Sequence record: LC739533.1
Strand: one strand, 5' to 3'
Source of the DNA: Escherichia phage phiWec179
Length of the DNA stretch: 64,000 nt
The notes under the pieces were generated by a model. It ran no database searches. It saw only the letters and a program-made list of their open reading frames with translations, and was not told the origin of the DNA. A program made the position numbers and the translations under genes. This document shows positions 17,012-47,332 of this stretch, in pieces. Each line of letters starts with the position of its first letter. Positions within the stretch are counted from its first letter, which is position 1.

Positions 17012-17052
17012 GGGCAAAAAGAAAGGGCGCTTTGTGCGCCCTTGTTTTGTTG
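17012..17052 (-). terminator. rho-independent terminator closing the minus-strand small-gene array
   Basis: hairpin AAGGGCGCtttgtGCGCCCTT flanked by T-runs on both strands, just past stop of 17057..17476. Confidence 0.6.
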
Positions 17053-17056
17053 TCAA

Positions 17057-17476
17057 TTATAACGCTTCATAGATTGAGTAGATCCGGTTTGCCAGGTCAT
17101 TACGAAAGCGGAATTTTTCATCACGTTTAATCATCAGATCCTTAAAACCGCATTCTTTCAAGGCTTCATTAACTTTACTGCGGCATACTTTCATATTGTC
17201 CTGCGCGTCACCAATAAACTTATTGCTATGATGCATTGTTTTGATCTCTTCCTCCAGGACCAGGGCAACTACACGGATCGGATCAAGCTGATACGCGGTA
17301 ACATCCATGCGGCATTGTAAACGGCTTTTAACATCGTTTACCGGATACACTGCAACCTCTTCCCCGTCAACGTTCACAATAACCAGCTTACCATCAATTT
17401 CGAAGCCTTTCGCGGCGCTACCGTGGCAAAAAGCGTTATCGAAGGAGTAAGCCGGATTATTTGATTTAATGTTCAT
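17057..17476 (-). CDS. hypothetical protein
   Basis: ATG at 17476; 139 aa. Confidence 0.5.
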   Translation of the reverse strand: MNIKSNNPAYSFDNAFCHGSAAKGFEIDGKLVIVNVDGEEVAVYPVNDVKSRLQCRMDVTAYQLDPIRVVALVLEEEIKTMHHSNKFIGDAQDNMKVCRSKVNEALKECGFKDLMIKRDEKFRFRNDLANRIYSIYEAL

Positions 17477-17521
17477 GTTGTTGTCCTTTGTTTCGTTTCG
17501 TTGTTTGCTGCCAGTGAGTTA

Positions 17522-17550
17522 AATATAATATAACGCCGATCCCCTGTCAA
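17522..17550 (-). promoter_or_regulatory. sigma70-like promoter
   Basis: minus strand TTGACA-N17-TATATT upstream of 17057..17476. Confidence 0.45.
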
Positions 17551-17585
17551 TAGGCGATAGCGCATTATTTACATTTCTTTACGTT

Positions 17586-17608
17586 AAAGGGCGCTTAGTG
17601 CGCCCCTT
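17586..17608 (-). terminator. intergenic hairpin (terminator-like)
   Basis: AAGGGCGCttagtGCGCCCCTT after stop of 17617..17985. Confidence 0.4.
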
Positions 17609-44991: not shown

Positions 44992-44992
44992 T

Positions 44993-45244
44993 ATGGCGGG
45001 TTATCATTTAATAGATATTGAGAAACAACCTTACGGCAGTATTGAAAAGATTCAGGAAGAAGTTTATGAACTTTTTGATGCTGTCGAACAGGATTGCAAA
45101 GTTATGCAATTGGTTGAATTGTCTGATATTGTGGGTGCTGTTGAAGGTGTGCTGGAGACACAGTTTCCTGGGATGACGTTGCAAGATTTGATCACCATGT
45201 CAGACATTACCAAACGTGCTTTCCGCACAGGAGGAAGATCATGA
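44993..45244 (+). CDS. MazG-like all-alpha NTP pyrophosphohydrolase (tentative)
   Basis: GAGGAG + ATG; EEVYELFDAVEQ...LVELSDIVGAVEGVLE resembles MazG EExxEL...ELxDxL. Confidence 0.4.
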   Translation: MAGYHLIDIEKQPYGSIEKIQEEVYELFDAVEQDCKVMQLVELSDIVGAVEGVLETQFPGMTLQDLITMSDITKRAFRTGGRS

Positions 45245-45804
45245 ATGGGGAAGTCATTGCCAATGCGATCCACTATTACGGACGCTATGCACAAATGATT
45301 CAAGTACCTTACCTGGTAGATGCAGATATTCTTGCATACACACTACCAGAAGGTAAAGAGGATCGCCCTTTGGGGCATCCTAATGGGAGATTCTATGTTG
45401 CCAGCGCAGAACAATCCTTCCTCCAGATGGAGAAAGATGGTTTTGAGTTTGTAGCAGAGCATCCTTATATGGCATTGACACCATGTTACCGCACAGAAGA
45501 TGTTCTTGATGAAAGTCATTTTAACATCTTTCTGAAACTGGAACTAATTGAGTTTTATCCGAAACATGGGCCTATAGCATATGCAAAGGATATGTGTAAT
45601 TTTCTTTGGACCTATTATAGTCTGGAAACACGTATAGTAAAAACTGAAATAGGGTTTGACGTGGAAGACAAATATGGGTTAGAATTAGGATCATTCGGGA
45701 TGAAGAATTCTCCGAAAGGTCATCCGTACATGTATGCCACAGGCATAGCAGAACCACGAGCATCTATTGCTCTTAACCACAGAGAGGGGTTTATTTATGA
45801 ATAA
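45241..45804 (+). CDS. hypothetical protein
   Basis: AGGAGG + ATG; 187 aa; no confident family. Confidence 0.5.
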   Translation: MNGEVIANAIHYYGRYAQMIQVPYLVDADILAYTLPEGKEDRPLGHPNGRFYVASAEQSFLQMEKDGFEFVAEHPYMALTPCYRTEDVLDESHFNIFLKLELIEFYPKHGPIAYAKDMCNFLWTYYSLETRIVKTEIGFDVEDKYGLELGSFGMKNSPKGHPYMYATGIAEPRASIALNHREGFIYE

Positions 45805-47296
45805 GTCGATGGAAGAATTAGTTAAATATTATGTCCACACAGAAGACCTGACAGACGCAGAGTTTACCAAGATTTATGATCTGTGCGAACAGCTTCAACC
45901 TGGCCCGTGGAACAGTGAAGAAGACTTCCGTGCCGATGTTAATCAAGATACAGGGTTTTTGTTCTTCGATCCTGCTAATGGCATTGATGCCGTACACAAC
46001 GAAGATTATATCCCAGCAGGTCTTTCTGTTACCACTACAGAGCATTTCGTTGATCTGCTTTTGGAGACAGCTTGGTGTGATTCCAAACCAATCTACTACT
46101 GCATGAAGGATACGCTACGTATGGCAGCAAGTCGCCTGTATGACGGGAACTCTCGCTTATATACGGCTGTAGCCGAGCTTTATGGTAATGGTTGGACTGC
46201 CGATCAACTCCAAAAAGCTTGGGAAGAAGGGCGTGGTGGGCGTGACGTTGTTATTTTCTCTGAAGTTTTAGGGGTGGATTCTATCGCTTATGAAAATATT
46301 CCACGCTTAGGGACAAAACCAGAAATCATTGATGGAGAAGAAATGTTAGATCTTATTTTAGCTAAAGTGGCAGGGCGATCTATTCACGAAGTGTGCGTAT
46401 CTACCAGAAAGATCTCCACAAGTCAAATGGAATCTCTTTTAAAGATTTTCACCCTGGTGACTGGTGAAGGGTATTGGAAAGATGCTGAACATTTTCTGAT
46501 GTATAGTCGTGGTCTGTCTGAACACTACTCTTTCTATAGTTCTAAGTCGGGGATTGATGGTCACAACAGTCCACAAGGATTAGAAATAGGTGTTGACGAA
46601 TTTATCAAACTGTTTTTGAAGCATTTAGGTATTGACAATACCGAGAAATCATTGGAAGATATCCTTGCTGACTTAACAAAAGAAGGAGAAGAAGTGGAAG
46701 AGAATACTTTTGAAGTTGAAGAATATGTGGAAGAATACCTTCCGAACCCTGGGTTCCCTCCAGAGGGTAATCCTTATGTGAAGATCGTCTGCCGTAACGG
46801 GCAAACTTTCACAGGTCCAGCCGACGATATGGGTTGGAGGGTCGATGAGAACCATCCCCATGATCTGGATATGGTGAAATATATGATTGTTCCGCGTGTA
46901 GCCAAAGTGGAGGCTGCTCCAGATGAGGTAGTTGCTCCGGTATATGCACCGAAGCCACGTTATCGTAAGACGCGCCAAAAGCCTCCTGTAGGTAAGAAGC
47001 CAGTTGTGCGTATTCTCTACACTACACAACAAACGTACATGTTTAAGAATGTGGACAGTGTGCAGGTTACAGGTGAGAAAGTGTATATCCAGTATGCTCG
47101 TAATATTGCAGAAGGTATTGTTGAGTCTGTTGTTTCCGAGATCGACAGCAATCTGCTTCTCGCAGTGGTGATTGAAGAGAATGGACACCGTGATAATTTC
47201 TTAGCTAACATCGACGGTTCTTGGGATTACCAAGGGCATGATGGTACTGCCGTTAAAGGTGGTAAGCTGATGGGACGACAGTTCCTTTCTAAATAA
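45797..47296 (+). CDS. hypothetical protein
   Basis: ATG at 45797 overlaps upstream stop; 499 aa; terminator follows. Confidence 0.55.
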   Translation: MNKSMEELVKYYVHTEDLTDAEFTKIYDLCEQLQPGPWNSEEDFRADVNQDTGFLFFDPANGIDAVHNEDYIPAGLSVTTTEHFVDLLLETAWCDSKPIYYCMKDTLRMAASRLYDGNSRLYTAVAELYGNGWTADQLQKAWEEGRGGRDVVIFSEVLGVDSIAYENIPRLGTKPEIIDGEEMLDLILAKVAGRSIHEVCVSTRKISTSQMESLLKIFTLVTGEGYWKDAEHFLMYSRGLSEHYSFYSSKSGIDGHNSPQGLEIGVDEFIKLFLKHLGIDNTEKSLEDILADLTKEGEEVEENTFEVEEYVEEYLPNPGFPPEGNPYVKIVCRNGQTFTGPADDMGWRVDENHPHDLDMVKYMIVPRVAKVEAAPDEVVAPVYAPKPRYRKTRQKPPVGKKPVVRILYTTQQTYMFKNVDSVQVTGEKVYIQYARNIAEGIVESVVSEIDSNLLLAVVIEENGHRDNFLANIDGSWDYQGHDGTAVKGGKLMGRQFLSK

Positions 47297-47306
47297 TAAA
47301 TAAGAA

Positions 47307-47332
47307 GGCGCTAAGTGCGCCTTTTTTGATCC
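47307..47332 (+). terminator. rho-independent terminator
   Basis: AAGGCGCtaagtGCGCCTT + TTTTTTG just after stop at 47296. Confidence 0.7.

Follow-up and report, generated by a model that had tools for sequence, protein, structure and literature searches.

Four recurring hairpins in a segment of the Escherichia phage phiWec179 genome resemble Rho-independent terminators

Introduction

Repeated stem-loops are well described in T4-type phages, where PeSL (promoter-early stem-loop) cassettes, single composite motifs of a sigma-70-like early promoter and a stem-loop, are present in about 50 copies per genome, mainly in hyperplastic regions, and are located at indel junctions (Arbiol et al., 2010, PMC2839356; Comeau et al., 2014, PMC4122927). 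For phage rV5, ORF164 was reported to be the final gene of a proposed transcription unit, and a 'late promoter-like' motif, TGGTAAAATA, was reported upstream of late genes (PMC3606486). Here we investigate four recurring hairpins, termed S1 to S4, in a stretch of 64,000 nucleotides (nt) from Escherichia phage phiWec179 (LC739533.1), referred to as the window. The window belongs to a Phapecoctavirus/"Wecvirus"-type E. coli myophage; phages of this type are Stephanstirmvirinae, and phiWec181 is the proposed type of the new genus "Wecvirus" (PMC12695924). A preliminary description of the window, made from its letters, had presented the hairpins as a family of near-identical conserved structured elements, used on both strands, distinct from the promoter cassettes and marking transcription-unit ends. 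We report that S1 to S4 are, judged from their sequence, most probably ordinary Rho-independent terminators or attenuators acting on the host RNA polymerase.

Results

Four hairpins follow stop codons on both strands

S1 to S4 have the core GG(G)CGC-N5-GCG(C)CC in common, and all were found where they had been described (Table 1), except that S3 is confined to 23800-23820, the earlier extent of 23798-23828 taking in flanking sequence. The strand context was likewise borne out, with minus-strand genes surrounding S1 to S3 (15-36 kb) and plus-strand genes around 47 kb, as was the identity of the gene following S4, nrdD, which matches PF13597. S4 resembles S1 to S3 less closely, as it has no more in common with them than the GGCGC core of 5 base pairs (bp) and the length of the loop. 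For this reason, membership of S4 in the S1-S3 family is not statistically compelling, and S4 may be an independent terminator.

The 14-base palindrome AGGGCGC-N5-GCGCCCT, searched with at most one mismatch, has three matches in the window and the 10-base core GGCGC-N5-GCGCC has four; neither pattern was found in 100 dinucleotide-preserving shuffles. This null is generous, since an A-run, a GC stem and a T-run make up a recurrent terminator design. Relaxing the pattern to a regular expression that allows loops of 3-7 nt brought up no additional hairpin members within the window. The genome-wide motif search proposed earlier was run on the full 151-kb genome of the related phage Schickermooser, where the GG(G)CGC...GCG(C)CC hairpin occurs only four times, in each case as an ortholog of S1 to S4.

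In the sense RNA the stems are 8-10 bp long, stable and GC-rich, with folding energies of -16.8 (S1), -16.1 (S2), -14.7 (S3) and -14.7 (S4) kcal/mol. Compared to shuffles the z-scores range from -3.2 to -5.2, and 0-4 of 200 shuffles fold equally well. Each hairpin starts 8-13 nt past the stop codon of a co-oriented gene, on the coding strand, and this intergenic placement holds for genes of both orientations. A U-rich tract directly 3' of the stem is present at S1, S3 and S4 and absent from S2.

Table 1. Coordinates of the hairpins and neighboring features in the window. Discriminant scores are of the d'Aubenton-Carafa type, computed with modern energy parameters, and approximate; aa, amino acids; ORF, open reading frame.
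Feature	Position	Strand	Description	Sense-strand tail	Discriminant
S1	17012..17043	-	Hairpin at 17023-17043 plus U-tract TCTTTTTG (~17015-17022); plus-strand letters AAGGGCGC-tttgt-GCGCCCTT, minus-strand reading AAGGGCGC-acaaa-GCGCCCTT	TTTCTTTTTG	+23
139-aa gene, rV5 ORF164 homolog	17057..17476	-	Stop codon 13 nt upstream of S1		
Sigma-70-type promoter	17522..17550	-	Strong, TTGACA-17-TATATT; ~35 nt downstream of S2; drives the 139-aa gene		
S2	17586..17608	-	AAGGGGCGC-actaa-GCGCCCTTT, 9 bp including one G.U; tail AACGTAAAG, no U-tract; plus-strand letters AAAGGGCGC-ttagt-GCGCCCCTT	TTTAACGTAAAG	-5
122-aa gene	17617..17985	-	Stop codon 8 nt upstream of S2		
61-aa gene	23585..23770	-	Start 29 nt past the S3 stem; ribosome-binding site (RBS) present, no promoter of its own		
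S3	23790..23820	-	Hairpin AAGGGCGC-aaata-GCGCCCTT at 23800-23820 plus tail TCTTATATCT; plus-strand letters AAGGGCGC-tattt-GCGCCCTT	TTTCTTATAT	+13
48-aa gene, T7 gp1.1-like	23829..23975	-	PF08200, E = 8.4e-12; stop codon 8 nt upstream of S3		
509-aa ORF	45767..47296	+	Stop codon 8 nt upstream of S4		
S4	47302..47329	+	Hairpin (G)AAGGCGC-taagt-GCGCCTT at 47305-47323, then TTTT (TTTTGA)	TTTTTTGA	+21
nrdD	47398..49212	+	Anaerobic ribonucleotide reductase; first gene past S4, 75 nt away; PF13597, E = 8.5e-163		
nrdG	49209-49679	+	Follows nrdD		

The RefSeq genome of Schickermooser (NC_048196) contains features termed "putative transcriptional terminator, determined by ARNOLD" at the orthologs of S1 (-13.7), S3 (-13.1) and S4 (-10.4), and no such feature at the S2 ortholog. 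An established predictor of intrinsic terminators thus recognizes three of the four orthologous sites. The U-rich tails of S1, S3 and S4 are conserved across relatives. Structure, position, orientation, conservation and prior annotation of the hairpins are established; termination itself is what we infer from them. The GC-rich stem would form in the emerging sense transcript just upstream of the U-rich stretch and release the polymerase.

Comparison of relatives indicates selection on the sense-RNA hairpin

In 14 of 14 loci examined, the ORF164-type gene is followed by a hairpin and then by TTTCTTTT(T)G or TTTTT, while the stems differ. The stem at this position is AAGGG(G)CGC/GCGCCCTT in Phapecoctavirus-type genomes, AAGGGGC/GCCCCTT in one rV5-like group and GAGGCCGC/GCGGCC in a second one, the last differing from the S1 stem of the window by one G-C to C-G pair swap, counted outward from the loop. 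This pattern points to a conserved structure at the S1 position and not to a sequence-specific site. Three alleles of S3 were found, in which the stem arms and the proximal TTTCTT are invariant; the loop is AAATA, ATCAA or ACCAA and the flanks vary. Furthermore, S2 of the window carries an extra G, as does S1 of most relatives; this G forms a G.U pair on the sense strand, compared to an A.C mismatch on the antisense strand. Taken together, stem replacement at S1, loop and flank variation at S3 and the G.U asymmetry indicate selection on the hairpin in the sense RNA.

A perfect palindrome with a fixed 5-bp spacer, as seen in all four copies, would also suit a double-stranded DNA (dsDNA) site, for instance an operator or a nuclease target, to which a dimeric protein of the phage or the host binds, in place of an RNA hairpin. 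We consider this extremely improbable, since the loops vary freely, the G.U asymmetry favors the sense RNA and other self-complementary sequences take the place of the stem at the S1 orthologs; on these three grounds the dsDNA operator was rejected. In addition, the copies are located just past stop codons, are accompanied by T-runs and do not overlap promoters, and the motif is ubiquitous in unrelated genomes.

S2 and S3 deviate from efficient terminators

Several results weigh against the terminator assignment. Transcript 3'-end or read-through data for Stephanstirmvirinae or Vequintavirinae were not found in the searchable literature; published work on this phage group contains routine in-silico terminator counts only. 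A simple terminator scan yielded 23 sites versus 17.3 +/- 4.0 in shuffles, and 10 versus 14.0 +/- 3.8; terminator-like sites are thus no commoner than in shuffled sequence, and enrichment at the level of the class is not shown. RNAalifold, applied to MAFFT-aligned S1 orthologs of both subfamilies, gave 4 pairs and -1.09 kcal/mol with an alignment that is not structurally consistent, so that covariation at S1 is based on manual comparison of the stems. S2 has no U-tract and a discriminant below zero. Finally, S3 is followed by a promoter-less gene and is therefore no efficient terminator.

At S3 both flanking genes are co-oriented, and no promoter is present between the hairpin and the start of the 61-aa gene. 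This gene has to be expressed by read-through, which requires S3 to be leaky. S3 is thus probably an attenuator within a two-gene unit, a partial terminator that would reduce expression of the downstream gene.

The S2 position carries a hairpin without T-run in both rV5-like groups as well, so the missing U-tract is itself conserved. In one of these groups the hairpin precedes the annotated promoter P164, and the site homologous to the sigma-70-type promoter downstream of S2 is annotated as P164 in rV5 (NC_011041). Because S2 has no U-tract and is placed before a sigma-70 promoter, its role as a terminator is doubtful; it would be a weak terminator at best, perhaps an insulator or a hairpin protecting the 3' end.

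Both deviating sites raise the question whether the hairpins, chiefly S2 and S3, are mainly elements of RNA stability or processing which, once processing or Rho-dependent termination has taken place, block 3'-to-5' exonucleases, or which serve as RNase III-type sites, and do not stop the polymerase. S2 and its rV5-like counterparts consistently have no U-tract, yet the hairpin is kept 8-25 nt past the stop codon, and S3 must permit read-through for the gene behind it. Canonical RNase III substrates need about 20 bp, and the stems of 8-9 bp are too short for this. The conserved U-rich tails of S1, S3 and S4 likewise speak for termination, and terminator hairpins stabilize 3' ends too, making the two roles compatible. 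We therefore regard a stability or processing function in place of termination as unlikely.

The hairpin sequence is widespread in unrelated genomes

Exact copies of AAGGGCGC-N5-GCGCCCTT were detected in at least 120 unrelated IMG/VR contigs; among the IMG/VR matches listed, a T-run or A-run immediately adjoins the stem in 111 of 127 copies. AAGGGCGC-N5-GCGCCCTTTCTTTTT, which specifies 23 bases including the tail, is present in 64 unrelated contigs of bacterial genomes spanning many phyla, compared to a chance expectation of about 0.02 (our own estimate for 596 Gb, both strands, uniform base composition). Since it is common in unrelated viral and bacterial contigs, the hairpin is a generic, convergently evolved terminator sequence, and the occurrence of the same 23-base string in unrelated bacteria means that identity between copies does not prove common descent. 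The 26 terminators annotated in NC_048196 include ACCCGC-TTCG-GCGGGT twice and GGGGC-TTCG-GCCCC twice; because Schickermooser holds these other groups with identical stems, recurring terminator stems are normal in this type of phage. The unrelated contig IMGVR_UViG_3300015050_001523 (322 kb, jumbo-phage-sized) has six copies of AAGGGCGC-N5-GCGCCCTT within 3.5 kb (5788-9290), in which the loops vary and T-runs are found at five of six.

A different origin of the copies was also considered, in which they form a paralogous repeat family providing short homology for recombination or gene conversion, as PeSLs do, so that early small-gene cassettes are shuffled or homogenized and termination is a by-product. 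In one metagenome relative (L127), S1 matches S3 exactly over a stretch of about 31 nt that takes in loop and tail, so that the three early-region copies may be paralogs or may have undergone gene conversion. S1 and S2 are direct repeats flanking one gene and have the same stem type per lineage, with GGGCGC in genomes of the Phapecoctavirus type and GGGGC in one of the rV5-like groups; in the second rV5-like group, however, the stems at S1 and S2 differ. Homology to a second relative (L128), in which S2 is absent, breaks off 33 nt from S2; for T4-type phages, shuffling by way of PeSLs has been documented (PMC2839356, PMC4122927). Against this stand the small number of copies, just four per 151-kb genome and all at orthologous positions, and the breakpoints themselves: S3 is not a breakpoint in any comparison, continuous alignments span S1 and S3, and breakpoints as well as repeated matches are mainly found at promoter cassettes. 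The 23-base hairpin with its tail has, moreover, arisen independently in dozens of unrelated bacteria, and identity does not need common descent. That recombination is the primary function, with termination as by-product, is thus very unlikely.

Another version, in which gene conversion keeps the three early-region hairpins and the pair flanking the ORF164-type gene in Stephanstirmvirinae and Vequintavirinae identical within each genome, as short recombination handles for cassette exchange, appears improbable as well; if true, shuffling of the PeSL kind would no longer be confined to T4-type phages. Searches with the 139-aa protein retrieved three loci in IMG/VR and eight in JGI metagenomes, too few for statistics on stem homogeneity within genomes. 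A mobile repeat of the REP/MITE type was rejected, as there are four copies only, all orthologous, and no extended flanking repeat. For the terminators proposed here, the shared stem would be generic and repeatedly evolved, and the three early-region copies are perhaps also paralogs or homogenized by gene conversion.

Genome setting

GC skew and ORF layout place minus-strand genes at about 1-36 kb and plus-strand genes beyond. Between 17 and 30 kb the minus strand is tightly packed with small genes, most of which have a sigma-70-type promoter of their own. A megablast search with 16000-24500 matched 252 INPHARED records, the top matches being phiWec181 and phiWec186, both Escherichia phages, with 96% identity across 96% of the query, followed by many Phapecoctavirus genomes (88-94% identity). 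The matching records include 19 named Campylobacter phage as well as Pseudomonas phage PsgM04F and Acinetobacter phage ABPW7, the latter two with 89-94% nucleotide identity to this E. coli phage type, and the host labels of all these records look doubtful. Searches of the whole window gave zero Rfam matches at the gathering threshold and no tRNA or tmRNA (ARAGORN).

S1 and the end of the early cluster

The product of the 139-aa gene upstream of S1 has no Pfam family; the gene is common to rV5-like phages (Vequintavirinae) with 88-91% amino-acid identity. Downstream of S1, 1.19 kb are without ORFs. S1 looks like the terminator of the last small early gene and is predicted to close the leftward early cluster. 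On the antisense strand the discriminant of S1 is +18, and the A-rich 5' flank of the hairpin likewise gives it bidirectional potential, so that S1 could work in both directions.

The non-coding stretch behind S1 (15866-17056, 1.19 kb) and a second one at 30330-30916 (587 nt) carry palindromes of the AATGAGAAT...ATTCTCATT type and repeats, located at 30352-30378, 30405-30433 and near 15870-15900. In rV5, the counterpart of the first stretch is the 'non-coding' region behind ORF164; in several relatives, the stretch is found near the record ends. Both stretches may serve as an origin, a terminus or regulatory DNA.

S4 and the region upstream of nrdD

S4 looks like a terminator between the 509-aa ORF and nrdD, where it would end the unit ahead of nrdD. 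The ORF product has no Pfam match; its ortholog in relatives is annotated 'class III ribonucleotide reductase'. On the transcribed strand the S4 loop is TAAGT in the window (47312-47316) and ACTTT in Schickermooser (NC_048196, 121240-121256); ACTTT comes close to the reverse complement of TAAGT, as would be seen had the loop been flipped between the inverted arms. The sole exact copy of the rV5 late promoter-like motif in the window is found between S4 and nrdD (47358-47367), and, with 11 matches versus 6.7 +/- 2.6, the window as a whole shows no enrichment of the motif.

Other repeated elements

About 20 promoter cassettes are present on the minus strand between 17.9 and 29.4 kb (for example at 20099-20179, 24428-24504 and 27174-27261). 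They have the form aaagtaTTGACA-N16/17-TAAGAT/TAAACT-gTATCACGTAG-GGCGGCAatggTGCCGCY-...AGAAGAGAGA, each comprising a sigma-70 promoter, a hairpin just past the -10 box, where the transcript has its 5' end, and an RBS. The cassettes coincide with homology breakpoints between related genomes. Furthermore, two identical hairpins, GGGGCG-gcaa-CGCCCC, are located in short intergenic gaps on the minus strand (19493-19508 and 19775-19790), with neither promoter nor T-run.

Discussion

The preliminary description is supported in that the hairpins look like terminators and differ from the promoter cassettes. That they mark the ends of transcription units is plausible for S1 and S4; it does not fit S3, which lies between co-oriented genes without a promoter between them, nor S2, which has no U-tract. 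To call them a conserved structured-element family overstates their specificity, given the unrelated viral and bacterial contigs with the same sequence and the other identical-stem groups in this phage type.

Beyond annotation the importance of the sites is small; they help to delimit the transcription units of the early region. S1 would close the leftward early cluster, and S4 would set nrdDG apart from the gene preceding it. The relative expression of two small genes is probably set by S3. Two curiosities remain, a conserved hairpin without U-tract before a P164-type promoter and the possible homogenization of terminator copies within a genome.

Canonical Rho-independent terminators, of the kind that ARNOLD or TransTermHP predicts for E. 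coli and its phages, are like the hairpins described here in their GC-rich stem of 6-9 bp, short loop, 3' U-tract and position after a stop codon. S2 differs from them by its missing U-tract and S3 by its leaky, intra-operon location; otherwise the design is that of the textbook. Terminators with recurrent identical stems, such as the UUCG-tetraloop terminators of Schickermooser and the six copies in the jumbo-phage-sized contig, are alike in repeating one stem within a genome; the UUCG-type terminators have a stable tetraloop, whereas S1 to S4 have a variable, A-rich pentaloop.

The likeness to PeSLs consists in repeated stem-loops among dense small early genes whose sigma-70-like promoters are strong, and S2 together with the promoter at 17550-17522 resembles a terminator/promoter composite. 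In contrast to PeSLs, no promoter adjoins S1, S3 or S4, a -35 box being found about 35 nt downstream of S2 alone, and the copies number four in the window as well as in the 151-kb genome of Schickermooser. A clear association with indel junctions was not found: one breakpoint (L128) is near S2, and most others map to the promoter cassettes. S1 to S4 are thus not PeSL cassettes as defined in T4-type phages. The PeSL-like elements of the window are the promoter cassettes with their GGCGGCA-atgg-TGCCGCC hairpin, which resemble one subclass of the T4-type PeSLs.

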